Positions 2,053 to 64,000 are shown, numbered from the stretch's first letter. The stretch is DNA of 64,000 nucleotides from an uncultured Rickettsiales bacterium (GCA_964445765.1 CAYULD010000004.1:83296-147295), one strand, 5' to 3'. Notes: generated by a model not told the origin, from the letters alone. Made by a program: numbers and translations.

Positions 2053-3484
2053 AAATTCTGCCATTAATGAAAAATTTTGTTTTAGCATTTTTGATTTTTC
2101 TTATTTCCCTTTCTTCAATTTCGGCAATCTCATTTTTTAATTCTGTATCTCTATTTTTGTAAGTGGTTTTATCAAGATGTTGATATTTAAGGTGATTATT
2201 CTGTTTGTTTATTTTTTCTTTATGCTCAATTAGTGTAACTTCTTGCTTAGAAATTACAGAATTTTGCTGAAACCTTTTAATTTGCTCTTTAAGAGTTTGC
2301 CTTGTTTTTGAGAGTTTTTGTCTTTCATATTCAACTAACTTTTTTTCTTCATCAGTTAGAGAGTTATAATCTTGCTCTTTCCAATAACCTCTATTGATAA
2401 CCTCCACCAAACGCAAAGCCCACTTTTCTTCAATTTCTGGCTCTTTAACATCTTGATCATTGAAGGTTTTGCCTTTTCTTTCCCTTCTGCGATTATCTTT
2501 TTTTCTGCTGTTAATATTTTCTAAGATTGAGGGATCAACAATTTCACTCATATCTTCTATAAGCCCTAAATTTTTTAGGGCAAAGGCAAGGCCATAACTG
2601 CTTAATACAAAAATTGTGTTATTGCTTCTTCTTCTTAAATCTTGAATTTTTTTTCTCGCACCAACATCTTCAGAAATTACAAGAGTTACAAGGCCTTTGT
2701 TAGTTTCACGCCTTTTTGAAAGTAAAAAATTTTCAATTGATTCTTCGCCTTTATCGTGCCTGAATATAGAAAATTCATCATCATTTTTTAAGCTATTTGA
2801 AGTTATAACACTTGTATAAATAGCCTGTAAAATAAAGGGTGTTGATTCTGGCAAAGCTCGCATTGTTTTTTGAAAAGTTCTAGATAATTTCAATTTTTCT
2901 GCGTGCTTAAAATCTTCTTCTATAAATTTATCATCAAAACCTTTTAGGCGATCTTGAAATTCAATTCTTCTATAAACTTTATCAAGCTCTTTGAGTAAGA
3001 TTTTATAGGCAGTTTCAAGTTGTAATCTGATTAATCTATAATCATCTTTAACCCTTTCGTAAGTTAGTGAAGAAAGCCTTTCGGGGTAATATTTTTCAGT
3101 AAATTTATTAAGCTCATTAAAAACTTTATCCCTCAGATTATTTTCATCAATAATCTTGAAAGCCCTAATCATAAAATAGAATTTATAGGCTTGGGAAATA
3201 TCTGTTTCTACGAATAGAATATTGCCTTTATTTCTTCTATAAAATTCGTGGAAAGCCCCATTTTTATCAAAGTTTGAAAGTTCAGTTTCTAAAAATTCAA
3301 TGAAGATTTTTCTTTTTGTTTCAATGCCAACTTGAAGTGGGATAAGAAAGTAACTGCCATCAAAAACAGGCCCTTGTTTTGTTTCTTGAGTGAGGAGTTC
3401 AAGGCCCCTAAGAACATTTTTTCCTGAGCTACAGCTATCAAATATAATCTCTAAAAAACTGCGTTTTTTATAAGTACTCATCAA
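2027..3484 (-). CDS. Hypothetical protein (485 aa) with a K/E-rich coiled-coil C-terminal third
   Basis: A long uninterrupted ORF in AT-rich DNA with no motif I can assign. The track start at 3484 is TTG, and an ATG follows at 3481. The 3' end overlaps the rnhB 3' end convergently by 26 nt. Confidence 0.6.
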   Translation of the reverse strand: MMSTYKKRSFLEIIFDSCSSGKNVLRGLELLTQETKQGPVFDGSYFLIPLQVGIETKRKIFIEFLETELSNFDKNGAFHEFYRRNKGNILFVETDISQAYKFYFMIRAFKIIDENNLRDKVFNELNKFTEKYYPERLSSLTYERVKDDYRLIRLQLETAYKILLKELDKVYRRIEFQDRLKGFDDKFIEEDFKHAEKLKLSRTFQKTMRALPESTPFILQAIYTSVITSNSLKNDDEFSIFRHDKGEESIENFLLSKRRETNKGLVTLVISEDVGARKKIQDLRRRSNNTIFVLSSYGLAFALKNLGLIEDMSEIVDPSILENINSRKKDNRRRERKGKTFNDQDVKEPEIEEKWALRLVEVINRGYWKEQDYNSLTDEEKKLVEYERQKLSKTRQTLKEQIKRFQQNSVISKQEVTLIEHKEKINKQNNHLKYQHLDKTTYKNRDTELKNEIAEIEEREIRKIKNAKTKFFINGRIFNSFYPAL

Positions 3485-5704: not shown

Positions 5705-5860
5705 TTGTTGCAACTTATACTCTGAATTTTTAGCTTATATAATCTTTTCAATTTATTTCAATATTTTAACTTGTTAATAATAGCTTGTTATTTACAAAAT
5801 AAACTTAATAAGTTAATAGCACATCAAAATTTTAGAAATAGCAATCTTAGAGGTAAAATT

Positions 5861-6562
5861 ATGCCTGAAGTAATTATCCCCGGTCCAGCTGGAAGAATTG
5901 AAGGAAGATATCACCATAATGATGATGGAAACTCTCCAGTGGCACTTGTTTTGCATCCTCACCCAAAACATGGTGGCACAATGAATAACAAAGTTGCGTA
6001 TAGTATTTACAAAGCATTCGCGGTAAATGGATTTTCTGTTTTGCGTTTTAATTTTAGAGGGGTTGGAAAATCTGAGGGGAGTTTTGATAACGGAATTGGC
6101 GAGCTTACAGATGCGGCAGCTTGTTTAGATTGGCTTCAAAAAATGAACCCAGATGCTTCAACATTTTGGATTTCCGGTTTTTCTTTTGGTGCTTGGATTT
6201 CATTTCAACTTCTTATGAGAAGGCCAGAGCTTGAGAGCTTTGTTTGTGTATCTCCGCCTGCAAATATGTATGATTTTTCATTTCTTTCACCTTGCCCTCG
6301 TTCGGGTTTAATTGTTCAGGGTGATGAAGATAGCATTGTTGATGAGCCCTCAGTTAGAAAACTTGCAGATAAATTGAATGCCCAAAAAGATATAGAGGTT
6401 GATTATCGCATTATCAGGGGTGGTGATCACTTTTTTAGGGGTTTAGGTGATAATTTAGATGATGCACTAAGGCAATATGTTAAAGTATATTCTGAGCCTC
6501 TAAAGAAAAGGGGAAGAATCAAGCTGGACAAAAAACGCCGCCAGTTGCCGAAGACATCTTAA
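5861..6562 (+). CDS. Alpha/beta-fold hydrolase (COG2945-like)
   Basis: HPHPKHGGTMNNKV and the nucleophile elbow GFSFGA are present. I use the ATG at 5861, preceded by AGAGG. The last 15 codons are encoded by direct-repeat copy 1. Confidence 0.8.
   Translation: MPEVIIPGPAGRIEGRYHHNDDGNSPVALVLHPHPKHGGTMNNKVAYSIYKAFAVNGFSVLRFNFRGVGKSEGSFDNGIGELTDAAACLDWLQKMNPDASTFWISGFSFGAWISFQLLMRRPELESFVCVSPPANMYDFSFLSPCPRSGLIVQGDEDSIVDEPSVRKLADKLNAQKDIEVDYRIIRGGDHFFRGLGDNLDDALRQYVKVYSEPLKKRGRIKLDKKRRQLPKTS
6517..6562. repeat. Direct repeat copy 1 (46 bp, AATCAAGCTGGACAAAAAACGCCGCCAGTTGCCGAAGACATCTTAA)
   Basis: By direct reading it is identical to 8844-8889. Read on the plus strand it supplies the hydrolase C-terminal tail IKLDKKRRQLPKTS and the stop. 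Confidence 0.95.
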
Positions 6563-6624: not shown

Positions 6625-7215
6625 ATGTCATATCAGCCTAGATATACTTCTCAAAAGGTTCTAACAGAATTTATTTTCAGGGATTTAGAAAAGACTGTTC
6701 TTCTAACTATGCAGCAACTTTTAAGTGTGCAGCAAACGGAAGATATGGATCTTAGTTCTTATTATGATCGGATTAGGACAAATAATTTTACACAAGAAGA
6801 ACTTAATAAAATAATAAATTTTTCATTTAACTTTGACTTATTAAATTATAATTTAGTAACAACAATAGCAAATACATTTTGCCAATATGATATAAATCTG
6901 CCACCAGAAGAGCTTTCTAAAATTATAGAATATTCGCTTGGTTATATAAATAAAAGACAAGAAAAGGGTTCTAGAAGAGCTTTTATTATAATTGATTTAT
7001 TAGATATCTCAGAAGAAGAAAAGGATAACTCATTGTTGCTTAAAGATGAAAATGGAAAAATTTTTGTAAATAAAAAATTATTAGAAGAAAATACAGAATT
7101 ATTTCTAAAACTTAAATCTTGTGTGTTATCAGAGGCTGTAAATATTTATACTTACTTGCAAAACAATCTAAAAGATAAAAAAAAGGTATTTTTGATGATA
7201 ATAGGGAAATCGTAA
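6625..7215 (+). CDS. Hypothetical protein (196 aa), first ORF of the repeat-bracketed cassette
   Basis: ATG-initiated ORF with no recognisable motif. It lies inside the 2281-bp segment between the 46-bp direct repeats. Confidence 0.5.
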   Translation: MSYQPRYTSQKVLTEFIFRDLEKTVLLTMQQLLSVQQTEDMDLSSYYDRIRTNNFTQEELNKIINFSFNFDLLNYNLVTTIANTFCQYDINLPPEELSKIIEYSLGYINKRQEKGSRRAFIIIDLLDISEEEKDNSLLLKDENGKIFVNKKLLEENTELFLKLKSCVLSEAVNIYTYLQNNLKDKKKVFLMIIGKS

Positions 7216-7256: not shown

Positions 7257-8843
7257 ATGAAGTTAGGGAAAGACTATTTAGATTTATTAGAGCGAGATGC
7301 AAATGATGCAAGTTTTATTGCTGGCTCAACAGGTTCAGAAAAGCAAGGATTATGGTCTTTAAATGAGGATATTAATAGCATTTTTTATGATACATTAAAA
7401 AAAATTGATATAGCACAAACATTAGGTTATCAACCTGCTTTTCTCTATGATTATGATCTTAGGGTTGAATTTATGAAAAATAATTTGTTATTTGAATCAA
7501 CAGATAATTTGGGTGGTAAAGAGTTACGCAATAAATATTTTAGTTATTTATTTAAAAGTGATGAAAGTACTGAATTAAGATTAGCAAATCCAAATATAGA
7601 AGTCTTTGATAAAACTTTACTTATCATAAAAGAAATTTCTATGCATCCTATTTCACAGGGGAATAGATATTTTGAGCTTGTTAGAGGGTATTTATATGAT
7701 TCAGTAATAGCGTCTTATAATGTTTCTATGTTGTTTTTAGTAAAAGAGCATCTGACTAACAAAAAAAATCGTAATAAACAATTTAATATGATGTTTTTTA
7801 GATTATTTTCTACTTTGGGTTTTATGCACCAAATGGTAAATGATTGTAAAGATCCATTCAAGGAATATAAAGGAAGCGATGCCTTAATAGATTTTGAAAA
7901 TTCAGAATTAACCGTTGTTACTAATCAGATTTTTAATCAAATAGAAAAAAAATACTTTTCTTCTGGGCAAGCTAGAAGAGATCTTCTAAATGGAGATGAA
8001 GAGCCAAGAGATTTTACCTTTAAAAAATACAAAATAGGAAATATAGTGTATGATCTTTTTGAAGAATGTCTACATAGAGTTGATAGCAAAATTATAAGTA
8101 TGCCTAGCGATGAAGTTATGAATAGTATAGATAAGGTTACTGATGTTAAAAACTTAACAAGAGATCAATTGATTGATCTATATAATTTTGGCGGGTCTAT
8201 ATTTCAAGAAAATAGCGTAACAAATGATGATTTAGAAATTGCTAAAACTCAGCTCAGATTAATTAGAAAAATAAAAGATAAATTATTAAATCACTTGTCT
8301 TTTTTTGACATTAGAATTCCCGGAAAAAATAAAATTTTAGATCTGTGGATTGAAAAATATAGTTCAGGAATAGAAGAAAAAGATGGAAAAAGATTTATAA
8401 ACAAAGACAAAATAAAAAATGATTATCCAAATGAGGCTTCGCATCCTAAAATTTTTTTATATAACTTTGTAATTGAGTCTAAAGATCTTAAAGCACTTAC
8501 ATCTAAAATAAAAGTTTTTAATGAGAAAATTCAGTCGGGTAAAATACCTAATCAACAAGCCATTGAAGCAAAACACATTGATGATTATATTAGAAGCGGA
8601 ACAATAAAGATAACAGATTCTGATTTCATAAAAGGTGGTGTATTTGAGTTATGCAAAGGGCTAATGAATGGAGAAATTTGTTCAGATAAAGGAAAAGGGG
8701 CAAGCATATACTTTTACTTTAAGAGAGGCTTTGCTATTGGTGATGAGCAAAAGGGGAGTATCTTTAATGATAGATTAAATGTTACTCAAAAATTGGAGCT
8801 TGAGACTCTCGCTAATAATTTAATTAAGAAAAGGCAACGATAA
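7257..8843 (+). CDS. Hypothetical protein (528 aa), second ORF of the repeat-bracketed cassette
   Basis: A long ATG-initiated ORF with no Walker, nuclease, integrase or other motif I can recognise. Its stop TAA at 8841-8843 abuts direct-repeat copy 2. Confidence 0.6.
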   Translation: MKLGKDYLDLLERDANDASFIAGSTGSEKQGLWSLNEDINSIFYDTLKKIDIAQTLGYQPAFLYDYDLRVEFMKNNLLFESTDNLGGKELRNKYFSYLFKSDESTELRLANPNIEVFDKTLLIIKEISMHPISQGNRYFELVRGYLYDSVIASYNVSMLFLVKEHLTNKKNRNKQFNMMFFRLFSTLGFMHQMVNDCKDPFKEYKGSDALIDFENSELTVVTNQIFNQIEKKYFSSGQARRDLLNGDEEPRDFTFKKYKIGNIVYDLFEECLHRVDSKIISMPSDEVMNSIDKVTDVKNLTRDQLIDLYNFGGSIFQENSVTNDDLEIAKTQLRLIRKIKDKLLNHLSFFDIRIPGKNKILDLWIEKYSSGIEEKDGKRFINKDKIKNDYPNEASHPKIFLYNFVIESKDLKALTSKIKVFNEKIQSGKIPNQQAIEAKHIDDYIRSGTIKITDSDFIKGGVFELCKGLMNGEICSDKGKGASIYFYFKRGFAIGDEQKGSIFNDRLNVTQKLELETLANNLIKKRQR

Positions 8844-8889
8844 AATCAAGCTGGACAAAAAACGCCGCCAGTTGCCGAAGACATCTTAA
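8844..8889. repeat. Direct repeat copy 2 (46 bp)
   Basis: Identical to 6517-6562. Read on the minus strand it encodes the native AnmK C-terminus KMSSATGGVFCPA and the stop. Confidence 0.95.
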
Positions 8890-27495: not shown

Positions 27496-27592
27496 CATTT
27501 CAGATCATCTGTATAACTCAATAGGTTAGTTGGGTTGTTGCAAAATTTGATACACAAATCACCGAATTTTATAGTATTTTAGACTGATGCCT

Positions 27593-27656
27593 TTCATTTT
27601 GAGCGGCGAAACATCTAAGATTCTTCCACTTCGTTTCGCTCAAGGTGCAGGATGAT
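27593..27656. repeat. Degenerate copy of the GTCAT...ATGAC palindromic repeat family
   Basis: TTCATTTTGAGCGGCGAAACATCTAAGATTCTTCCACTTCG...GGATGAT aligns with the reverse complement of the element at 63894-63946. Confidence 0.7.
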
Positions 27657-29206: not shown

Positions 29207-29278
29207 GTCATTTCGAGCAAAGCGAGAAATCTCATAGAGTTATAAAACAACGAGATATCTCGCTTCGCTCGATATGAC
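29207..29278. repeat. GTCAT...ATGAC palindromic repeat (72 bp)
   Basis: GTCATTTCGAGCAAAGCGAGAAATCTC ... GAGATATCTCGCTTCGCTCGATATGAC. The arms are about 27 bp with a few mismatches. Confidence 0.85.
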
Positions 29279-29441: not shown

Positions 29442-32336
29442 TTAAGAAATTTCAAAGCAACCACCAAGGCCAAGTTGATTCAATACATTTGCAACGGTTG
29501 CAGCATCTGGGCAAGCTAAATCTCCGCATATATCTCTCATTTCTCTAATAACTAAAACATTTCCAATTTCATTTCCTTGAGAATCTGTGTTTCTAAGCTC
29601 TGAATCCCAAAAGGCTTGATCAATATATCCGCCATTTGTTCTAATAGCTCCACCCCATAATTCCTGACCAACTGGTGTATCAATACCTTCTTCATATCTT
29701 AAACTACAACCACTACCAAGAGAGCTATTCGTAACATTATTAGCAGGTGCCATATTTTGAGATGAATTATCATCATTGTAAAAATCAAAATTATCAAAAC
29801 CTATAGAATAATTTGTTTCTTCAATTTCTTCCACAGGTAATGAGATTTGATTTTGAGTATTCTGAGTTTGTGAAGTCTGATTTGAGTTTGATAATAAATT
29901 ATTTTGCCAGCTTGCGCCAATATTTGAAAATGAATTATTTGCAAAATTCACAATAGGCTCTGCAGGCTGTTGATAAAAATCATTAGCAGGTGCAGAATAA
30001 TTGGAGCTTGAACCTAAAAATGATAAAAATGAGTTAAAGCTATAAGTTGGTGTTGATGGTTCATTAATAGCTGGAACTAATTCAGGCATAACAATATCAG
30101 AGGTTTTTTCTATGGTTGCAACATTTTCTGCACTAGTTTTATCTTCTACAAAATTTAGATTTGATGGTAATTCTAATGGCATCATTGCAAGGCCTGCATA
30201 ACTTGAACTTACTTCAGTGCTCTCTATATTTTCTTGATCTTCTTCTTTAACTTCAGTAACGGTTTGAACAACTTCTATAGTTTCATAATTTTTGTCATTT
30301 GCTTCATCTGCTTTGTTTTGAATAACTTCCTCAAATGATGGCTCTCTTTGTATGGATTTTATGCTATTAGATTCAGACTTGTCAGCAATATCAATGATAA
30401 TAATTCCTTCATTTGTCTCTTCTGAAATTTTATTATCTAATAAGCTTTTTTCTTGTTCTTCTGATTGTTTTGTTGAGTTGCTAGCATATGAAACATCTTC
30501 AGCGCCAGATAATAATGGTTCTTGTTCAACTTCTGCCTCTAATGTATTATTTGTAGAATCAGCTTCTTTAACTATTTGATTATTGTTTAAATTGCCAGTT
30601 AGTTTTTGTGTTAGAGCTGATAATTTTGCTATTTTTTCAGAAAAACTTAGATTTGATTTAGAAAATAAATCACTTATTTCTCTTGCTATGCTATTTTCCA
30701 TATCTGGTTCTTGTTTCTTAGGTTGAATAATATCTTCATTATTTTCTGAGCTGTTTGCTTCAACTATTTCGATATTTTGCTCTTCTATTTGTATTTCTGA
30801 ACCTACTTTCTCATCTAAACTTTTGGGTTGTTCATTCCAATTGCCAAAGTTAAATAATCCAGAGTTGCTTTCTGTTGCAATAGCTTCATTAGAGGAAACT
30901 TCTTCTTTAGCTTCTTGGTTTTCAACAACTATTATTTCTTCTTCAGCTGGTATTTCAACTTGTTTAATATCACTCACAGGTTCTACTGAAGTATTGTTAA
31001 TTTTGCTTAGTAAGAACGCTAAGCTGGAATTTTCAGCGGGCATTGAAACATTTTCATTTTGGGTTGATACTGAGTTGTTTTGAACTGGTTGTGTTTCTTG
31101 AATAGTTTGTTCAACATTATTAGTATTTTCTGAAATCTCAATTGCTCCAATATCTACAATTTCTGATACGATATTATTTTCACTTGGTGCTTGTTCCTCA
31201 ATAGGTTTTTCTATTAAACCCAATTCTACTTTGGCAGAGAATAAATTTTCAAAGCCTAATAATTCAGAGGTTCTTTCTTCTCCAAAATTAATTTCTAAGG
31301 CTGAAATTAAATCTGCTATTTTACCCCTAGCATAAGGACTATCTTCATAATTTCCCAGACCTTTCTTTTGAATGAAATCATAAACACCTGAAAAGTGAGG
31401 AATATTTGCTTGGGAAATGAAAGATGGGATTTTTGAGTTTGAGATGCCTATGAAACCTATCTCTGGAACGAATTCAAAACCTGCTTTTGACATTAAATCT
31501 ATAGCATAGGTTGGTAATGCAGTTCCTTCTGAGTCTTGGTAAATTTCTTTCATTAAGTTTGAAACAGTTCCTTTTTTTACTGCATCAACTAACTTTAAAT
31601 AATATTGTTGATCAACTATATTTGAAGGGTTGTAAGGTACTAAAACTTTAGTGTTTCCTACATTTATTACTTGAGGGTCAACGCCATTGTGTGATGATCG
31701 TTGAAAGCTATTTAAAGGGTGATTTGAATTTGGCCAAGTATAACCTTGCTTAGAAAGAGAGTTCCAAGCTGCACAACCTGCCTGACCTATGTCAAAGGAA
31801 AATTCTACATTTTCAAACCTTGTATTTGGCGTAGTGCTTTGGATTTCTATAAAGGCTTCAAATCTTCCGCCACCTAGCATAACAGCTGTTGAAGCGGTAG
31901 CAATTGCAGAATCAGATAAGAAAAATTCTATACTATTGCCATCAGCTGATAATTTGTGAGTAATCTGGTTTCTAGGAATTATAATTTCTTCACCAGTTCT
32001 ATCTAAGATAATTTTGAATGATAAATTATTTGAAGAATTTGCACTATTAAGACCAATAATATCTAAATCACCCGGCAAGTTAGTGCCATTTGCTGATTCA
32101 AAATTATGGCTATCTTTAACTTGAATCTTAACTAATGGTGTATCTGAGGTAATTCTAGAAAAATACGTTGCAAAAGCAGATACATCAATATCATATTTAT
32201 CGGAAAAGCCTGTTGAGCCTCCATCTATAGTAAGATTGGGATTAAGTATATTAGACATTGCCTCTTCTAATTTTTGAAGTGTATCCAAATATTTTGGATT
32301 GTTGTTACTTGAAGTTTGATTCCATCTCAAAGGCAT
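29442..32336 (-). CDS. Large low-complexity protein (964 aa), probable paralogue of the 1517-aa protein
   Basis: An uninterrupted 2.9-kb ORF with no signal peptide. The centre is E/N/S/Q-rich and the C-terminal ~90 aa contain several Cys. It has the same promoter block and the same GGGGGA SD spacing as the 1517-aa gene. Confidence 0.8.
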   Translation of the reverse strand: MPLRWNQTSSNNNPKYLDTLQKLEEAMSNILNPNLTIDGGSTGFSDKYDIDVSAFATYFSRITSDTPLVKIQVKDSHNFESANGTNLPGDLDIIGLNSANSSNNLSFKIILDRTGEEIIIPRNQITHKLSADGNSIEFFLSDSAIATASTAVMLGGGRFEAFIEIQSTTPNTRFENVEFSFDIGQAGCAAWNSLSKQGYTWPNSNHPLNSFQRSSHNGVDPQVINVGNTKVLVPYNPSNIVDQQYYLKLVDAVKKGTVSNLMKEIYQDSEGTALPTYAIDLMSKAGFEFVPEIGFIGISNSKIPSFISQANIPHFSGVYDFIQKKGLGNYEDSPYARGKIADLISALEINFGEERTSELLGFENLFSAKVELGLIEKPIEEQAPSENNIVSEIVDIGAIEISENTNNVEQTIQETQPVQNNSVSTQNENVSMPAENSSLAFLLSKINNTSVEPVSDIKQVEIPAEEEIIVVENQEAKEEVSSNEAIATESNSGLFNFGNWNEQPKSLDEKVGSEIQIEEQNIEIVEANSSENNEDIIQPKKQEPDMENSIAREISDLFSKSNLSFSEKIAKLSALTQKLTGNLNNNQIVKEADSTNNTLEAEVEQEPLLSGAEDVSYASNSTKQSEEQEKSLLDNKISEETNEGIIIIDIADKSESNSIKSIQREPSFEEVIQNKADEANDKNYETIEVVQTVTEVKEEDQENIESTEVSSSYAGLAMMPLELPSNLNFVEDKTSAENVATIEKTSDIVMPELVPAINEPSTPTYSFNSFLSFLGSSSNYSAPANDFYQQPAEPIVNFANNSFSNIGASWQNNLLSNSNQTSQTQNTQNQISLPVEEIEETNYSIGFDNFDFYNDDNSSQNMAPANNVTNSSLGSGCSLRYEEGIDTPVGQELWGGAIRTNGGYIDQAFWDSELRNTDSQGNEIGNVLVIREMRDICGDLACPDAATVANVLNQLGLGGCFEIS

Positions 32337-56906: not shown

Positions 56907-58331
56907 TTAATATCTATCACTTATGAAGATTGATGAATTGCTATCTTGAATGCCAGATTTTAATTCAGTGATTGTAAATTCAATATCTTTTCTATTCTGC
57001 TTTTGCTTGTTTGAAGTTACAAAAACCCTTAATTCTGCAACGGAATTTGCCAAAACTTTTATTTTACTCGGCTTAATTTTAGATGCAGATTGAATTTTGA
57101 TTTTAGCATTTTTTAAGCCTTTAACTTCAAGTTTATAATATTTATCATAATGAGTTTTATTGAGGATTTTTATAACATAATTGTTTCTAATTGAGCCATC
57201 AGAAAGCAGAACAAATAAGGGTGATCTATCGTGTATGGTGTGAATTTCGTGAAGTGTTCTGTTAAGTAATGCATATAAAATTAGCCCGCAAATAAAAGCT
57301 AACATAATTGAATAAATAACGGTTCTTGGGCGTATAAAGCGGAATTTAGAAGGAAGCCCTAACTTAACCCTTTGCATATTTCTTTCAGTGTCATATCTTA
57401 TTAAACCTCTTGGAAGGTTAATCATATCCATAGTTTCATTACAAGCATCAACACATAAACCACAAGCTATACATTCCATTTGAAGGCCGTTGCGAATATC
57501 AATTCCAGCGGGGCAAACATTAACGCACTTCATACAAGAAATACAATGCCCCCTGTTTTCCATTGAATCCCCTTGTTTATATTTACCACGAGGCTCACCC
57601 CTATTTTTATCATAGGTTATGATAAGGCTATCTTTATCAAACATTGCAGATTGAAAACGCGCATAAGGACACATAAAATTACAAACTTGCTCCCTCGCAA
57701 AGCCAGCCATTAAATAGGTGGAAAAGGTAAGGGCAACTATCCAGCCCCAAATTGCAAATGGAACATCTAAGTGGATTATATGATCAAATAGGGTAGGGGC
57801 ATCATTAAAATAGAAAACCCAAGCACCGCCTGTCATAAGCCCAATTAACAGCCATATTATATGGGTAAGTGTTTTTTTATAAATTTTCTTAAAGTTAATT
57901 TTGCCATCTTGATAGAGTTTCTGCTTATCTAAAGCCATTCTATCATTGCGATTGCCTTGCACTATGCGTTCTACCCAGATGAAAAAATCTGTCCAGATTG
58001 TTTGAAAGCAGAAATAACCACACCAAACCCGCCCAAATAAAGAGGTTACAAAGAAAAGCCCTAATGCGGCAACTATTAAAATGCCAGTTAAAATATAAAC
58101 TTCTTGCGGCCATATCTCAAACATAAAGAAGTAACCCCTGCGGTTTGCCATATCTATTAGAATGGCTTGATCTGGTGCGTGGGGGCCTCTATCCCACCTT
58201 ATCCAAGGGGCAAAGTAATATACTATTAACGCAATTATAGTTATAACCCATTTGATTTTGCGATATCTGCCCCATACTCTTTGTGGGTAAATTTTCTTCT
58301 TCTTTTCAAAATATGTGATGGCTGAGGTCAT
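56907..58331 (-). CDS. ccoG: cbb3-oxidase accessory protein CcoG/FixG (4Fe-4S, membrane)
   Basis: It has two ferredoxin-type clusters (CISCMKCVNVCP, CIACGLCVDAC), N-terminal TM helices and the CcoG-typical length. Confidence 0.92.
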   Translation of the reverse strand: MTSAITYFEKKKKIYPQRVWGRYRKIKWVITIIALIVYYFAPWIRWDRGPHAPDQAILIDMANRRGYFFMFEIWPQEVYILTGILIVAALGLFFVTSLFGRVWCGYFCFQTIWTDFFIWVERIVQGNRNDRMALDKQKLYQDGKINFKKIYKKTLTHIIWLLIGLMTGGAWVFYFNDAPTLFDHIIHLDVPFAIWGWIVALTFSTYLMAGFAREQVCNFMCPYARFQSAMFDKDSLIITYDKNRGEPRGKYKQGDSMENRGHCISCMKCVNVCPAGIDIRNGLQMECIACGLCVDACNETMDMINLPRGLIRYDTERNMQRVKLGLPSKFRFIRPRTVIYSIMLAFICGLILYALLNRTLHEIHTIHDRSPLFVLLSDGSIRNNYVIKILNKTHYDKYYKLEVKGLKNAKIKIQSASKIKPSKIKVLANSVAELRVFVTSNKQKQNRKDIEFTITELKSGIQDSNSSIFISDRY

Positions 58332-58379
58332 TAAATAGATGTATTTATTTTGTATAAATTATACATTGTTTTAAGTGTG

Positions 58380-58399
58380 TATCTGCAAAAATGCAGATA
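58380..58399. promoter_or_regulatory. 20-bp palindrome TATCTGCA-AAAA-TGCAGATA, candidate operator 1 upstream of ccoG
   Basis: Read directly. It starts 49 nt upstream of the ccoG ATG. A second copy is at 58446-58465. Confidence 0.4.
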
Positions 58400-58445
58400 T
58401 TTTCAGATTTGAATTAATATTCTATATCAATATATTATTTTAATT

Positions 58446-58465
58446 TATCTGCAAAATTGCAGATA
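58446..58465. promoter_or_regulatory. 20-bp palindrome TATCTGCA-AAAT-TGCAGATA, candidate operator 2
   Basis: Read directly. Its centre is 66 bp from the centre of copy 1. Confidence 0.4.
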
Positions 58466-58546
58466 AATTGGGTTGTTTTATAAAAAAGTTTTACTAAACT
58501 TTTTTAAGTAGATACCCTTTTAACTAAACTAAATACCCGCCACCCT

Positions 58547-58785
58547 ATGTTTTTTCGAACGGAGTTAGGAATCTGGTTAGTATATATTCCTTTTAGATCT
58601 TTCGCTTCGCTCAAGATGACGCAAGTTTTATTATTTTACTTGTCATCTCCGCGAAAGCGGAGATCTAAAACCTATCTTGGATTCCCGCTTTCGCGGGAAT
58701 GACAGTAGTTTTTAAGTGGATACCCCTATAATTTTTTCTTGCTGAAAAAATTCGGGGTATGACAAGCTAAAACCTAAACCCTATC
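58547..58785. repeat. Composite palindromic repeat, copy i (module A + module B), interrupted by a nested palindromic element at 58642-58703
   Basis: It aligns with copies at 59926-60078 and 60838-60989. The extra segment GTCATCTCCGCGAAAGCGGAGATC...GATTCCCGCTTTCGCGGGAATGAC is absent from the other two copies. Confidence 0.85.
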
Positions 58786-58872
58786 TTATTTGCCCTCACC
58801 CTCTGAAAGATAAATTCTTTAAGCTCTCCCAGAGGGAGAGGGAATTTTTTAGAGAGTATAACCAATCAGCAC

Positions 58873-59763
58873 CTATTTCCCACCACCTAGGGAGTGAACA
58901 TAGATAGTTAGTAATTTAATTTGAGTTTCGCTAAGCCTGCCTTCCCAATTTGGCATTTTACCCATTTTAGCATTATAAATATATAAGGGTAAGTCCTCCT
59001 TGGGGTTTTTTACTTTGAGCCATATTGCATCAGAAATATTTGGCGCACCAAAATCTGCGTTGCCTTCACCCTTTTCACCGTGGCAAGATGCACAATTATT
59101 AACAAAAATTTCCTCACCTTCTTTTAAGTAATTAGCTTTTTTGTTACTATTCAATTTGGAAAGCGAAAGCACATAATTTGCAACTTTTTCAATCTCTTCT
59201 TGATTAAGAACGCCATCTTTACCAAAGGCAGGCATTGCGGAATCTCTAGTTTCAGAATCATTAGACATTCTTATTCCGTGTCTAATAGTGTGAGAAATTG
59301 CATCAAAATCACCGCCCCAAATCCAATCATCATCATTTAAGTTGGGATAATTAATTGCACCAGCACCGCCTGTTTGATGGCAAGTTGCACAATTATCCTT
59401 AAAGATAATTTCACCTGCATTTTTAGCGAATTGGAATAATTCATCAGATTTTCTAATCTCATCAAGAGATAATTTTTCTACCTGCTTAATATATTTTGCT
59501 TTTCTCTTAACTATTTCTTTTTGATCATCTTTGAGTTTTTTATATTGTGTCCAGCCGAATGTGCCTTGAGTGGCATTTTTAATAGTTGGCCAAGCAGGGT
59601 AAACCACCCAATATCCGATACTCCAGATTATTGTTATAATAAAAACAATAAGCCACCAGCGAGGCATAGGGTTGTTGAGCTCTTTTAGGCCATCCCACTC
59701 GTGCCCTGTGGTTTCAACGCCGGAATGTTTATCAATTTCTTTTTTATTATTATCGTTACTCAT
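58873..59763 (-). CDS. ccoP: cbb3-type cytochrome c oxidase subunit III (dihaem)
   Basis: It has an N-terminal TM helix, a WDG..ELNNPMPRWW motif, and two CxxCH sites (CATCH, CASCH). Confidence 0.93.
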   Translation of the reverse strand: MSNDNNKKEIDKHSGVETTGHEWDGLKELNNPMPRWWLIVFIITIIWSIGYWVVYPAWPTIKNATQGTFGWTQYKKLKDDQKEIVKRKAKYIKQVEKLSLDEIRKSDELFQFAKNAGEIIFKDNCATCHQTGGAGAINYPNLNDDDWIWGGDFDAISHTIRHGIRMSNDSETRDSAMPAFGKDGVLNQEEIEKVANYVLSLSKLNSNKKANYLKEGEEIFVNNCASCHGEKGEGNADFGAPNISDAIWLKVKNPKEDLPLYIYNAKMGKMPNWEGRLSETQIKLLTIYVHSLGGGK

Positions 59764-59906
59764 TTATCCTCCATAGGAAGTTTAGAAATATCCTCAAATT
59801 TCTTTTTATTTTTTGGCCTGTAGGCATAAAAAACCGCAACCAAAAAGATTGCTAAAAAGAATAAAAGTGAAAATAATTTATAATTTATAATTTCTTGCTC
59901 ACTCAT
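59760..59906 (-). CDS. ccoQ: cbb3-type cytochrome c oxidase subunit IV (CcoQ), 48 aa
   Basis: Below the ORF-track size cut-off. My translation is MSEQEIINYKLFSLLFFLAIFLVAVFYAYRPKNKKKFEDISKLPMEDK. It has a single TM helix and the YAYRP.NK..F pattern typical of CcoQ. Its stop TGA overlaps the ccoP ATG (ATGA). Confidence 0.75.
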   Translation of the reverse strand: MSEQEIINYKLFSLLFFLAIFLVAVFYAYRPKNKKKFEDISKLPMEDK

Positions 59907-59925
59907 AAATTTATTACCTGTTAGT

Positions 59926-60085
59926 GTCATTTTTAACGGAGCGAGAAATCTAGTTGAAGTATATTTCTTTTAGATCTTTCGCTTCGCTCAAGATGACGCT
60001 AGTTTTTAAGTGGATACCCCTATAATTTTTTCTTACTGAAAAAATTCGGGGTATGACAAACTAAAACCTAACCCCTAACTAACTA
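59926..60085. repeat. Composite palindromic repeat, copy ii, filling the ccoO-ccoQ spacer
   Basis: Module A is GTCATTTTTAACGGAGCGAGAAATCT...AGATCTTTCGCTTCGCTCAAGATGAC. Module B is the hairpin ATACCCC...GGGGTAT plus the tail CTAAAACCTAACCCCTAACTAAC. Confidence 0.9.
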
Positions 60086-60089
60086 CCAA

Positions 60090-60803
60090 TCATTTCTTAT
60101 AATTCTTCAAGTCAGCGAAGGTGCCGAGTGCTTGAAGATAAGCAACTAGGGCATCAAACTCTGAAACTAAATTAGGGTTGCCATCAAAATCACGAACATT
60201 AACCTTTTCACCATATCCAGAAGTTAGCGAAGATGAATCTGCTTCAGCGGAAGCCTGTTTTATTGCGTCATTATATGCGTTTTCTATCATCGCATCATCA
60301 TAAGGCACACCAAGCATTTTTAGAGCCTTCATTTGAGATGCAACATCAGATAAATCAACACCTCTATTCTGCATAAATGCATAAGCTGGCATTATGGATT
60401 CAGGCACTAAATCACGAGGATTAATAAGATGTTCAATATGCCATTCATCAGAATATTTGCCACCTAGGCGAGCTAAATCAGGCCCTGTTCTTTTTGAACC
60501 CCATTGAAAGGGGTGATCATATTTGCTTTCACTTGCTAGGGAATAATGGCCGTATCTTTCAACTTCATCACGAAGTGGGCGAACTTGTTGGCTATGACAA
60601 TTATAACAACCTTCACGAATGTAAATGTTATATCCAGCGAGTTCTAGAGGTGTATAAGGGCGAATGCCTTCAACTTTTTCAAAGGTAACTTCGTGGCGAA
60701 ATAATGGCACAATTTCAACCAAGCCACCAATAGAAACCATTATTACTATGAATATTAGTAATAAGATTGAATTTTTTTCTAATTTTTCGTGTTTTGAAAG
60801 CAT
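60090..60803 (-). CDS. ccoO: cbb3-type cytochrome c oxidase subunit II (monohaem)
   Basis: CYNCHSQ haem site, an N-terminal TM anchor, and the conserved GPDL.R.G...S..WH..H motif. Confidence 0.95.
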
Positions 60804-60837
60804 AATTTATTTTTTAACATTTTGTTTTTTTTTTAGT

Positions 60838-60989
60838 GTCATATCCAGCGGAGTGAGAAATCTGGTTGAAGTATATTCCTTTTAGATCTTTCGCTTCGCT
60901 CAAGATGACGCTAGTTTTTAATTGGATACCCCTATAATTTTTTCTTACTGAAAAAATTCGGGGTATGACAAACTAAAACCTAGCCCCTA
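60838..60989. repeat. Composite palindromic repeat, copy iii, filling the ccoN-ccoO spacer and overlapping the ccoN stop codon
   Basis: About 10 mismatches to copy ii over ~150 nt by hand alignment. The ccoN stop (60980-60982) lies in the repeat tail AAACCTAGCCCC. Confidence 0.9.
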
Positions 60990-62392
60990 TTAATATCAAG
61001 CTCTTTACTGGTGATAGTTTTATAAACATTATAAACCATAATCAGCATTCCAGCGATATAAAGCAGGCCACCTAAAGCCCTAATCAAATAATAAGGGTGC
61101 ATTGCCATAACGGTTTCAACAAATGAATATTCAAGCAAGCCATATTCATTATAACTACGCCACATTAAGCCTTGCATAATACCTGCAACCCACATTGCTG
61201 TGATGTATAGAACGATACCTATAGTTGCTACCCAAAGGTGAGTGTTAACTAATTTATTAGAATATAAGCCTTGCTTATTCCATAGCACCGGCACTAAGTG
61301 ATAAAGTGCACCCATTGTAATAAACCCAACCCAGCCTAATGCACCGCTGTGAACATGACCGATTGTCCAATCAGTGTAGTGAGAAAGTGCATTAACCGCC
61401 TTAATTGACATTAATGGCCCTTCAAAAGTGCTCATTCCATAAAAGGCGAGGGAGATAATCATAAATCTAAGAACTGCATCTGAGCGTAATTTATCCCAAG
61501 CACCTGAGAGAGTCATAACGCCGTTTATCATACCGCCCCAAGAAGGCATCCAGAGGATAATAGAGAATGTCATACCTAAAGTTTGTGCCCAATCTGGCAG
61601 AGATGTATAAAGCAAATGGTGTGGCCCTGCCCAGATATAAATAAAGATAAGCGACCAAAAGTGAACGATTGATAATCTATAAGAATAGACAGGCCTTTCA
61701 GCTCGCTTTGGAATAAAATAATACATTATACCTAAGAAGCCAGCCGTTAAGAAAAAGCCAACCGCATTATGACCATACCACCATTGAATTAATGCAGATT
61801 GCACACCACCCCAAACCGGCACAGATTTAATTGATGTTAATGAAAGTGGAATTGATAAAGCGTTGATAATGTGAAGAACCGCAACTGTAACAATGAACGC
61901 TAAATAAAACCAGTTCGCAACATAGATGTGAGGCTCTTTACGGTTTTTAAGCGTCATTAAGAAAATAACTAAATAAGCAACCCAAACTACGCATAGCCAT
62001 AAATCAGCATACCATTCTGGCTCTGCATATTCTTTACCTTGAGTAACGCCGAAAAGATAGCCAAGCCCAGCCATTAATATAAAAGATTGATAACCCCAGA
62101 AGGTGAAATCAGCCCATTTATCACCCCAAAGGCGAGTTTTGCAAGTTCTTTGCACTACAAAATAACTAGTGGCAAATAATGCATTGCCACCGAAAGCAAA
62201 GATTACTGCGGATGTGTGGAGAGGGCGAAGCCTGCCGAATGTAAGATATTCACCAAAATTTAACTCAGGAAATGCCATTTGAAGTGCAATAACCAAGCCG
62301 ACTAAAAAGCCTGCAACACCCCAAAAAATGGTAGCGATTGTGAATTTTTTAACAATATCGTAATTATATATAGTATTAATCTGTGAATTCAT
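60980..62392 (-). CDS. ccoN: cbb3-type cytochrome c oxidase subunit I
   Basis: A 12-TM haem-copper oxidase core with conserved His ligands ([55 protein letters not shown]). Confidence 0.97.
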
Positions 62393-62399
62393 TTTTTAC

Positions 62400-63143
62400 C
62401 TATCGTTCAATGTGATTGATAATAATTAAAATCAAAAACGCACCATTGACTAACATCAAATATGGTGAGTATTTTTTTATATCTGTTCTTAACTTTTTAA
62501 TAAAAAATCCAATTCCGTAATTGCTTAAAGTCAAGGGAATGAAAGTTCCAGCCCCAAAAGATGCAAGAGCCAACGCACCTGTTGCAAAATTACCAGTTGA
62601 AGCCGAGGCGATAAAAGCCGCATATAAAAAAGCACAAGGCAAAAACCCCATTAAAACGCCAAATAAGAAGGAATTATTAAGGGTTTCCTTTGATAAAAAT
62701 TTTTTAGAGATGTTATTTATTGCTGTTGAAAATTTGCCATAATTAAAAAATTTTTTGGCAAAACCGATATTAAAGGCTGAGATAATCATCAGAATAATTG
62801 CAAATGAAAGAATTGCTATTCTAGCAATTTCAAAATATTTTTCAGAGATAACAGAAACTGAAACCCAAGCTACAATACCGCCAATTAATGAGTAAGTAAA
62901 AATTCTGCCTAAATGATATGTTATTAAAAGGCTGTTATAAAATCTTTTTAATTCTGAAAAATTATTTTCATCACATTTATTACAAGAAAGTTTTTTAGTA
63001 GATAACGCAAACGCAAAGGGGGAGCACATCATAGAGCAATGAGTAAAACCGCCAATAAGCCCAGCTATAAACATTGCCCAAAGCACCCCCCCTTCAATAG
63101 TGTAAGATGATAAACAAAATAAATTTAATGAATGATTATGCAT
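62400..63143 (-). CDS. DsbD_2 / TauE-like polytopic membrane protein with an HCSMMC motif
   Basis: About 6-7 TM segments, with GGFTHCSMMCSPF in TM1. It ends 7 nt before the ccoN ATG, so it is probably co-transcribed with the oxidase genes. Confidence 0.6.
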   Translation of the reverse strand: MHNHSLNLFCLSSYTIEGGVLWAMFIAGLIGGFTHCSMMCSPFAFALSTKKLSCNKCDENNFSELKRFYNSLLITYHLGRIFTYSLIGGIVAWVSVSVISEKYFEIARIAILSFAIILMIISAFNIGFAKKFFNYGKFSTAINNISKKFLSKETLNNSFLFGVLMGFLPCAFLYAAFIASASTGNFATGALALASFGAGTFIPLTLSNYGIGFFIKKLRTDIKKYSPYLMLVNGAFLILIIINHIER

Positions 63144-63160: not shown

Positions 63161-63802
63161 TTAGAATTTATAGGTAACACCAACACCGAAAATCCAAGGG
63201 TCAAGATCAACATCACCAGTGATTGCACCATTATTGATTGATACATCAGTGTTCAAGTATAGCCTTTTAATATCAAGGTTTAAGCCCCAATGCTCATCAT
63301 ACATAAAATCAGAACCCATTTGAAGAGCATAGCCAAAGCCATCTTCATATTCAACTCTGTTTAAGCCAGCACCTTTTTCAACATCATAAAAGAAGGTATA
63401 ATTAACACCTGCACCAACATAAGGCTTGATGGTATCACAAATATCAAGGTGATATTGTGCCGTTAAGGTTGGTGGTAAAACATTAACTTTACCTAAATCT
63501 ACATATTGCCCAAGTGATGAGCCTTTTGCAGACATTTCGTGCTCAGTAGTTGCAAGAATTAATTCAAACGCAAGATTTCTATTAACGAAATAAGTTATAT
63601 CAAATTCTGGAACAACATCAGGCTCCGCATTAGCACCGCCACCTATTGATAAAGCTGATTCTGCATCACCTGCATCAACTTTTATTGCCCTTACCCTTAA
63701 TTGCCAAGGGTTAGAATATTCATTATTAGATTTATTACCAGCAAAAGAAGCAGATGAAATTAATGAAGAAGTTATAAGTAAAGTTGATAGTAGTTTTTTC
63801 AT
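63161..63802 (-). CDS. ompW: OmpW-family outer-membrane protein
   Basis: It has a signal peptide, an 8-strand barrel pattern, LPPTLTAQYH and KPYVGAGVNYT motifs, and a C-terminal GVGVTYKF. Confidence 0.85.
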   Translation of the reverse strand: MKKLLSTLLITSSLISSASFAGNKSNNEYSNPWQLRVRAIKVDAGDAESALSIGGGANAEPDVVPEFDITYFVNRNLAFELILATTEHEMSAKGSSLGQYVDLGKVNVLPPTLTAQYHLDICDTIKPYVGAGVNYTFFYDVEKGAGLNRVEYEDGFGYALQMGSDFMYDEHWGLNLDIKRLYLNTDVSINNGAITGDVDLDPWIFGVGVTYKF

Positions 63803-63855: not shown

Positions 63856-63869
63856 TTGATTTTTATCAA
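63856..63869. promoter_or_regulatory. Perfect FNR/FixK box TTGAT-TTTT-ATCAA upstream of ompW (and probably the cco genes)
   Basis: Read directly. On the minus strand a TATAAT (63835-63830) follows 20 nt after the box. That puts the box centre near -40, the class II geometry. Confidence 0.6.
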
Positions 63870-63893: not shown

Positions 63894-63946
63894 GTCATCC
63901 TGAACGAAGTGAAGGATCTTAGATTCTTCGCCACGCTCAGAATGAC
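63894..63946. repeat. GTCAT...ATGAC palindromic repeat (53 bp), with an additional half-copy at 63969-63996
   Basis: GTCATCCTGAACGAAGTGAAGGATCT-T-AGATTCTTCGCCACGCTCAGAATGAC. The half-copy reads ATAGATTCTTCGCTATGCTCAGAATGAC. Confidence 0.9.
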
Positions 63947-64000
63947 AGACCAAATGCTAAAATGCCATAGATTCTTCGCTATGCTCAGAATGACAAGAGC

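Follow-up and report, generated by a model that had tools for sequence, protein, structure and literature searches.

Palindromic hairpin repeats in the spacers of a cbb3 oxidase operon from an uncultured Rickettsiales bacterium

Introduction

Why should an operon whose genes are normally packed tightly together carry long palindromic repeats between its cistrons? The question is raised by ccoNOQP, the cbb3 oxidase operon, in a metagenome-assembled genome (MAG) of an uncultured Rickettsiales bacterium, of which a stretch of 64 kb, here called the window, was analysed; coordinates are positions in that window, and the cco genes lie on its minus strand. In this operon ccoN and ccoO are separated by 176 nt and ccoO and ccoQ by 183 nt, and ccoQ and ccoP are coupled through an ATGA overlap. 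An earlier examination of the DNA from its sequence alone (the sequence-only reading) had remarked on this layout, with which the gene calls agree, and had described both gaps as filled by near-identical copies, in the same orientation, of a composite palindromic repeat. That description is upheld by a repeat search and a MAFFT alignment, which give 94% identity across 157 nt.

The repeats are probably small, non-autonomous, hairpin-forming mobile DNA of the kind represented by the REP, BIME and REPIN elements and by the Rickettsia palindromic elements (RPEs), that is, recent and tolerated selfish DNA that is co-transcribed as mRNA hairpins. Among the roles entertained for them earlier, that of tolerated selfish insertions is the best fit: the composite is missing from the nearest relative, its copies are far more alike than the neutral divergence between the two genomes would lead one to expect, and related units are dispersed in other Rickettsiales MAGs.

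Anatomy of the composite repeat

60833..60989, plus strand: composite copy 1, ccoN-ccoO gap (module A palindrome 60838-60909; module B palindrome 60910-60984)
59921..60077, plus strand: composite copy 2, ccoO-ccoQ gap (module A 59926-59997; module B 59998-60072)
58548..58785, plus strand: composite copy 3, after ccoP (degenerate module A 58548-58628, nested insert, module B and tail 58704-58785)
58629..58711, plus strand: nested insertion in copy 3, 83 nt, exactly at the A/B junction

In copies 1 and 2, module A, module B and a tail make up a single 157-nt block with identical ends; these common ends are sharp and the flanks are without homology, which favours movement of a discrete unit over segmental duplication. 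Copy 3 aligns as two blocks, module A at 83-85% and module B with its tail at 96% identity. The sequence-only reading had correctly seen a third copy after ccoP, the 83-nt insertion having escaped notice, and a module-B fragment that it placed at 58501-58520 amounts to a short resemblance (~17/19 nt by eye) that BLAST did not recover.

Module A is, as described earlier, a 72-nt imperfect palindrome with GTCAT/ATGAC ends, and it is constructed as an inverted doublet of GTCAT hairpin units. The window has five occurrences of the pattern GTCAT-N40-70-ATGAC where 0.67 would be expected, and the repeat observation is therefore real and far beyond chance. (A census of the pattern 'GTCAT plus hairpin' was dropped as non-discriminating, with 9 matches against ~6 in shuffles.) For module B the hairpin described earlier stands, whereas its tail is not a separate appendage: the 'tail' base-pairs with the A-B linker, so that module B becomes a palindrome of 75 nt (60910-60984) with the unit GTCATACCCCGAAT...ATAGGGGTATCC at its centre.

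The basic unit, as defined by individual folds, consists of GTC, a hairpin opening and closing with AT, and then C(C/T). Within the A-type unit, GTCAT-xyz-GAGCGAAGCGA-z'y'x'-ATCT, the variable stem positions covary among copies (CTT/AAG, TTC/GAA, ATC/GAT, CCT/AGG, TCT/AGA), and it is therefore the hairpin, not the sequence, that is conserved; covariation was taken from the individual folds because MAFFT set the variable inner stem of the B units out of register. The linker motif CTAAAACCTA is present four times in the window, all within these elements, one of the four being in the spacer of the nested doublet and shared with the composite tail.

In the mRNA sense the composite ends are 5'-TAGGGG...ATGACACTAA-3'. 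Copy 1 overlaps ccoN by 10 nt, and the last ccoN codons and the stop (aaT AGG GGC TAG; 60989-60980) are element-derived. The repeat had been placed in the ccoN-ccoO spacer, to which positions 60980-60989 do not belong, the ccoN stop and last two codons falling there inside the element; in the predicted fold the foot of the module-B hairpin contains this stop codon.

Other members of the superfamily in the window

The insertion nested in copy 3 is itself a GTCAT...ATGAC palindrome, an inverted doublet GTCATCTCCGCGAAAGCGGAGATC ... GGATTCCCGCTTTCGCGGGAATGAC (58642-58703), and it belongs with the composites to a superfamily that occupies six loci within the window. The remaining members are as follows.

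63894..63995, no strand: GTCAT-unit superfamily member (doublet 63894-63946 with one additional unit), lying upstream of the ompW promoter region
29207..29278, no strand: lone palindrome of module-A type, with 71-75% identity to the cco copies, upstream of sucB
27570..27640, no strand: degenerate A-type doublet, adjoining a tRNA gene

Inverted doublets are seen in module A, the nested element, 29207-29278 and 63894-63946. The solitary palindrome at 29207-29278 lies between sucB and a 964-aa open reading frame (ORF; 29442..32336, minus strand) that is rich in Asn, Ser and Glu over long stretches of low complexity and matches no Pfam family, even at E<=1e-3.

The composite itself is absent from the remaining ~61 kb of the window, all three copies being within 2.6 kb. 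A random distribution at high density, the circumstance in which such a cluster would be expected, is thus not what the 64 kb presents; a rough, post-hoc estimate based on ~49 gene junctions gives a probability of the order of 6/49^2, ~0.003, for three random insertions in three adjacent junctions.

Against Rfam, the nested doublet (58617-58726) aligned with RF02748 FtrB (Francisella small RNA B) through the common segment GUCAUUCCCGCGnAnGCGGGAAUC, with a match on both strands because the sequence is palindromic. At 31.1 bits, below the gathering score of 66, membership of FtrB was rejected; as a sub-threshold match it suggests that the hairpin unit is common to very distant Proteobacteria. 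At gathering thresholds Rfam had no match for the elements, and a BLAST search of a plasmid collection had none.

The ancestral operon and the age of the copies

60980..62392, minus strand: ccoN, cbb3 oxidase subunit I, 470 aa
60090..60803, minus strand: ccoO (FixO), 237 aa; the ortholog has PF02433
59760..59906, minus strand: ccoQ, 48 aa, counted from the ATG that corresponds by homology to the CcoQ start in L002 (MSEQEIINY)
58873..59763, minus strand: ccoP, 296 aa; ATGA overlap with ccoQ

The operon was compared with that of its nearest relative, L002 (a 'Rickettsiales bacterium' MAG, GCA_033762595.1, CcoN 95% identical), and with those of the more distant relatives L008, L009 and L011 (CcoN 84-89% identical). 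The earlier premise that ccoNOQP is normally tight is borne out by an 11-nt overlap of ccoN and ccoO in L008, L009 and L011, and by overlap of ccoO and ccoQ too in L009 and L011. It follows that the long spacers of the window are derived. L002 has the same gene order, with gaps of 71 nt between ccoN and ccoO and 42 nt between ccoO and ccoQ, and lacks the composite.

In a C-terminal alignment CcoN is ~14 aa shorter than in the more distant relatives, a truncation common to the window and L002, and in both a hairpin starting TTGTCA(T)(A)CCCC follows the new ccoN stop. Thus the ccoN/ccoO overlap was probably broken once, in a common ancestor. The overlapping operon would, accordingly placed by the shared truncation and the shared GTCA-CCCC hairpin, first have opened at the ccoN 3' end in the ancestor of the window and L002.

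The copies themselves appear much younger. Third-codon positions of ccoN, ccoO, ccoP and ccoG are 30-40% different between the window and L002, whereas module B with its tail differs by 2.5% between copies 1 and 2 and by 4% from copy 3, and module A by 10% between copies 1 and 2 and by 15-17% from copy 3. The copies therefore arose, or were homogenised, long after the divergence of the two lineages. Being the most diverged and bearing the nested insertion, copy 3 looks the oldest, and the composite would probably have been present first after ccoP; only later, well after the lineages had split, would it have spread, or been copied by conversion, into the spacers between ccoN and ccoO and between ccoO and ccoQ. 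The greater divergence of module A than of module B with its tail (83-90% against 96-97.5% identity) could reflect different ages, with B inserted beside an older A, or conversion, or a stronger constraint on B.

Related units in other genomes and a proposed route of spread

A search pattern that fixed the head and outer stem of module B and left the inner stem free identified module-B units in six other MAG or metagenome contigs of Rickettsiales or alphaproteobacterial origin (L003, L005, L006, L013, L014, L015), most of them from Rickettsiales MAGs. The free inner stem varies between copies with pairing retained, and the B units of L013 and L015 are each joined with a sister unit in an inverted doublet, in the manner of a REPIN. 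L013 also carries a doublet of the nested type, in-frame in a gene, where it supplies the residues VIPAKAGIQ...DPRFRGDD.

L013, 8580..9653: MidA-like methyltransferase ORF with in-frame insert 9033-9098 (…VIPAKAGIQPSKKLDPRFRGDD…, a GTCATTCCCGCGAAAGCGGGAATCC-type doublet); alphaproteobacterial metagenome contig

Related units are demonstrably dispersed and mobile in other genomes. In L015 a 96-aa ORF (2935..3225) that by eye resembles a GIY-YIG nuclease stands beside the inverted doublet of module-B-type units (3248-3345), which may be coincidence or may mark a homing nuclease.

Spread of the units could have involved recognition of single-stranded DNA (ssDNA) hairpins by an HUH/RAYT-like enzyme and insertion beside existing units, the latter being suggested by the nested insertion at the A/B junction.

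A number of results weigh against mobile DNA of this kind. A target-site duplication was sought by eye at the three copies and no consistent direct duplication was found; no transposase or RAYT (Y1_Tnp) was present among the 40 window ORFs scanned with Pfam, nor among the called genes of L002 and L009-L011, although 64 kb allows little to be said of the genome as a whole; and the head, GTCAT, differs from that of enterobacterial REPs, GTAG. The module-B pattern had five matches in 185,579 species-representative genomes, none of them from the source genome (a scan of metagenome contigs added three), the A-B junction pattern had no match in metagenome contigs, and the 51-codon open frame of the composite had no match among 5.8 billion proteins. 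In these scans the composite itself was found nowhere outside this operon, so that its mobility beyond the operon is at most putative, and local gene conversion could give the same picture.

Such local copying, by gene conversion or recombination between spacers from a single ancestral post-ccoP copy and not by transposition, is nevertheless an unlikely account. It would suit the confinement of all composites to 2.6 kb, with none in the other 61 kb or in the public scans, as well as the greater homogeneity of module B and its tail, and the seemingly ancestral GTCA-CCCC hairpin in the ccoN-ccoO gap could have served as homology for conversion. The sharp ends and non-homologous flanks of copies 1 and 2 are at odds with it, as is the ccoO-ccoQ site of L002, which has no hairpin that might seed conversion; the demonstrable mobility of related units elsewhere and the nested insertion, a sign of ongoing insertion activity at the locus, point the same way.

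Apparent repeated colonisation of the cco cluster

The cluster extends on both sides of ccoNOQP, to ompW and dsbD-like genes upstream and ccoG downstream.

63161..63802, minus strand: OmpW-like gene, directly upstream of the cco genes
62400..63143, minus strand: DsbD-like gene, directly upstream of the cco genes
56907..58331, minus strand: ccoG

L002 has a hairpin family of its own, TGTCACCCCGCAyTTrTTGCGGGGTTAA, in the ompW|dsbD and ccoN-ccoO gaps, after ccoP, where it forms a doublet, and after ccoG, with one further locus in 21 kb; four of its five loci are in 7 of the 22 junctions, p ~0.04 by a binomial estimate of our own. An unrelated structured insert of 264 nt (L010 7456-7719) occupies the ccoN-ccoO gap of L010 and is 72% identical across 245 nt to an element in the ompW|dsbD spacer of L008 (1967-2202), with frame-breaking indels. 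An 80-aa ORF in the L010 spacer was discarded as a gene, its L008 homologue having indels that are not multiples of 3 and truncating at 34 aa; this structured, non-coding element of ~250 nt (-74 kcal/mol) had no match in Rfam.

The cco cluster thus seems to have been colonised repeatedly, by different families, and clustering there does look non-random, both in the window and in L002. Insertion beside existing hairpins would explain this, as would relaxed constraint after loss of coupling; the former would fit the nested insert lying exactly at the A/B junction and the L002 hairpins lying at the same sites. A stronger proposition is that the ompW-dsbD-ccoNOQP-ccoG cluster is a genuine hot spot for hairpin elements across a Rickettsiales clade, with three unrelated families in its spacers: the composite in the window, the GTCACCCCGC family in L002, and the ~250-nt structured element in L010 and L008. 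We hold this to be doubtful. Were it true, the elements might home to existing hairpins or to ssDNA exposed in an FNR-induced operon; alternatively, intercistronic hairpins might be selected repeatedly after the loss of coupling, as exchangeable mRNA-stability modules.

RNA folding and expression

The sequence-only reading had anticipated large stable mRNA hairpins if the operon is read through, and in-silico folding in the mRNA sense predicts them: -49.8 kcal/mol (z = -5.1) for the ccoN-ccoO spacer and -51.3 kcal/mol (z = -4.8) for the ccoO-ccoQ spacer. The ccoP-ccoG spacer is predicted to fold at -169.7 kcal/mol (z = -11.6). For module A, the antisense (plus-strand) RNA folds 5-7 kcal/mol better than the mRNA sense, and the mismatches between its arms are therefore not of the G-U type that selection at the mRNA level would tolerate; as modelled, this weighs against a selected RNA function of module A.

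Simple scans of the mRNA strand found no sigma-70-like promoter or terminator-like site in 59907-60089 or 60804-60979. FNR boxes were likewise absent from the repeat-filled spacers; two lie upstream.

63856..63869, no strand: perfect FNR/FixK-type box TTGATTTTTATCAA, upstream of ompW; position conserved in L002 (8439-8452)
62446..62459, no strand: FNR/FixK-type box with 1 mismatch, upstream of ccoN; position conserved in L002 (9934-9947)

With no promoter or FNR site in the spacers and boxes upstream of them, ccoO and ccoQP would rely on read-through. The elements would then be read from one or more FNR-type promoters upstream of ompW and ccoN and would form strong hairpins in a polycistronic mRNA, with translational coupling of ccoN to ccoO and of ccoO to ccoQ presumably lost. 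By analogy with REP, ERIC and Correia repeats, the hairpins may alter segmental mRNA stability or processing, and could plausibly act as barriers to 3' exonucleases, as substrates of RNase III or RNase E, or by stalling ribosomes at the stop codon; the comparisons made here show no selection for such an effect. A gene for a Crp/Fnr-family regulator lies near ompW, immediately or at most two genes upstream, in L002 and L008-L011, and in L012, which is without ompW, a Crp/Fnr-family gene is upstream of the dsbD-like gene.

Could the hairpins instead be selected intercistronic RNA elements, stabilisers or processing sites that have replaced coupling and tune the amounts of CcoN, CcoO and CcoQP? 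The predicted strength of the hairpins, the three copies in one orientation, and the precedents of REP, ERIC and Correia repeats for effects on mRNA (PMC12306157, PMC10969869) would accord with this, as would the presence at the ccoN-ccoO gap and post-ccoP site of L002 of hairpins from another family and, at the ccoN-ccoO gap of L010, of a third, unrelated structured insert. The comparative evidence runs the other way, since most relatives have overlapping genes without hairpins, the ccoO-ccoQ hairpin is missing in L002, for all its 95% CcoN identity, and module A folds better as antisense RNA. Moreover, cbb3 subunits assemble 1:1:1, so that there is no obvious need for differential expression, and by chance alone three copies would share one orientation with a probability of 1 in 4. 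Selection for an RNA function is consequently improbable as the origin of the repeats, and tolerated mobile DNA is preferred.

It is far less probable still that the repeats are internal promoters or intrinsic terminators dividing the operon into separate transcription units, as had also been suggested earlier. Correia and other MITEs (transposable elements of the miniature inverted-repeat type) can carry promoters (PMC10969869), and copy 3 contains one promoter-like match, ATGACA-17-TATCTT, albeit on the plus strand; the intercistronic copies, in contrast, have no such site on the mRNA strand, the number of promoter-like matches in the region is that expected from shuffled sequence, and the conserved FNR boxes are upstream of ompW and ccoN and not in the spacers. 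As for termination, the mRNA 3' of the hairpins is A-rich and not U-rich, and with a terminator after ccoN the oxidase would be deprived of an essential part.

Misjoining of the MAG at its repeats can be dismissed as scarcely credible, for although an independent Logan assembly of the same reads (contig L001) has both its ends inside repeats, that contig is 100% identical to window 63918-60953 up to those positions, the N-O-Q-P-G order is canonical and collinear with all relatives, the coding sequences are intact on both sides, and the three copies differ at specific positions.

Comparison with known repeat families

REPs between cistrons have been known since the 1980s, and Higgins et al. are said to have described the first REP sequences as palindromic repeats between the cistrons of operons; heads differ among REP families, so that the GTCAT head of the present units speaks neither for nor against membership. 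REPs are imperfect hairpin units, 20-40 nt long, in which a conserved head (GTAG in E. coli) lies 5' of the hairpin foot (PMC3479197), and they typically number more than 100 copies per genome, dispersed in extragenic space (PMC2817692). BIMEs are inversely oriented REP pairs, and recognition of REPs by RAYTs requires the 5' head together with the hairpin (PMC3479197, PMC2817692). Within operons there are 3'-terminal and intercistronic classes of REP, which stabilise mRNA or stall ribosomes near stop codons (PMC12306157).

The architecture of head-plus-hairpin units in alternating orientation with common linkers is that of REP, BIME and REPIN elements (PMC3479197, PMC2817692, PMC3116915). The likeness of the present repeats to those of E. 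coli and Pseudomonas lies in the short imperfect hairpin units with a conserved 5' head, the inverted doublets and mosaics with common linker motifs (here CTAAAACCTA), the sites at gene 3' ends and between cistrons, the covariation of stems with structure kept, and the breaking of assemblies at the repeats. They differ, apart from the head, in being AT-rich with a GCGAAGC or GCGAAAGC core, in the lack of a RAYT gene among the ORFs scanned, and in that one copy runs into the end of a coding sequence and another, related unit is in-frame in a gene, which is unusual for REPs.

With the RPEs the repeats share the host order Rickettsiales, a palindromic character with a length of ~100-150 bp, and the capacity to become coding sequence, here the CcoN C-terminus and stop and the in-frame insertion of L013. 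When modules A and B and the nested element were translated, no frame matched a family in NCBIfam or Pfam, even at E<=10; these libraries presumably include models of RPE peptides, and membership in the defined RPE families was rejected for want of a match. The sequence families are other ones, and the copies here are mainly intercistronic. Frame-keeping insertion into genes is the behaviour that made the RPEs famous (PMC10969869).

Of the MITEs, Chunjie inserted in an operon without disrupting it (PMC10969869), and it resembles the composite as a recently active small repeat in an operon, presumably co-transcribed (PMC10969869, ref. 11). Chunjie, however, has terminal inverted repeats and target-site duplications and is a single insertion in its operon, whereas here there are hairpin units, three copies in one operon and no target-site duplication found. 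A classical MITE, whether Correia or Chunjie, was rejected because no consistent direct duplication flanks the three copies and the window has no related insertion sequence. The Correia (CREE) and NIME/dRS3 repeats of Neisseria and the ERIC repeats of enterobacteria are transcribed palindromic repeats of ~100-150 bp, processable by RNase III or RNase E (PMC10969869). Their palindromic form and length are common to the present repeats; the Correia terminal inverted repeat, TA duplication, IHF site and mRNA-sense promoter-like sequence are lacking here. The nested unit ATTCCCGCnnnnGCGGGAAT bears what we take to be a resemblance to the neisserial dRS3 pattern. FtrB of Francisella shares the segment through which it aligned and differs in its sub-threshold score.

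On sequence grounds, then, the elements appear to work like REP/BIME/REPIN elements and RPEs; membership of any named family is not established, because the head differs, no RAYT was seen, no RPE peptide matched, and there is no terminal inverted repeat with target-site duplication. They probably constitute a previously undescribed REP/RPE-like family of hairpin repeats in uncultured AT-rich Rickettsiales. Overall the case, though clear, is a fairly ordinary one of small mobile DNA in an operon, the principle being already known. What is notable locally is the lost ancestral overlap, the captured CcoN C-terminus and stop, the three copies in one respiratory operon, and the occupation of the same sites by different families in sister genomes. 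Close relatives, with sites filled in some and empty in others, indicate that such elements can open an ancestrally overlapping, coupled respiratory operon and can even provide CcoN with a stop codon and with residues at its C-terminus. For annotators, they would account for the odd spacers, for breaks in assemblies at the locus and for a ccoQ start that is likely mis-called, and three copies in one essential operon offer a compact natural test of whether intercistronic palindromes alter mRNA stability.

Other features of the locus

The ccoQ ORF is called from 59930 and not from the homologous start at 59906 because the ATGAC terminus of copy 2 provides an in-frame upstream ATG; the longer start is likely a mis-call.

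The sequence-only reading held that every spacer of the operon is occupied by the repeat. This is so for the ccoN-ccoO and ccoO-ccoQ spacers; that between ccoP and ccoG probably forms the operon's end and is not internal to it. Its ccoG-proximal ~150 nt are conserved in L002 and bear paired palindromes, and the region 3' of ccoP carries a further hairpin.

58382..58463 (58382-58397, 58448-58463), no strand: paired palindromes TCTGCAnnnnTGCAGA upstream of ccoG, conserved in L002 (~13520-13610)
58793..58842 (region to 58850), no strand: G+C-rich hairpin CCCTCACCCTCTG...CAGAGGGAGAGGG just 3' of ccoP, unrelated to the composite; terminator-like on the plus strand only

TCTGCAnnnnTGCAGA has three matches in the window at <=1 mismatch against 0.15 expected, the two upstream of ccoG being exact, and the pair marks the ccoG-proximal spacer as a separate regulatory region outside the composite repeat. 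The palindromes are candidate regulator-binding sites of a separate, putative ccoG promoter. A scan of the region found no canonical terminator for ccoNOQP itself; the T-run after the CCCTCACCCTCTG...CAGAGGGAGAGGG hairpin is on the plus strand only and would terminate antisense, not cco, transcription.

Elsewhere in the window, a 46-nt perfect direct repeat (6517-6562 and 8844-8889) flanks a 2.3-kb stretch between a convergent hydrolase gene (5771..6562, plus strand) and anmK (8846..9988, minus strand). The stretch contains ORFs 6625..7215 and 7257..8843, without a match in Pfam, NCBIfam or PADLOC, and looks like an insertion with a duplicated target.

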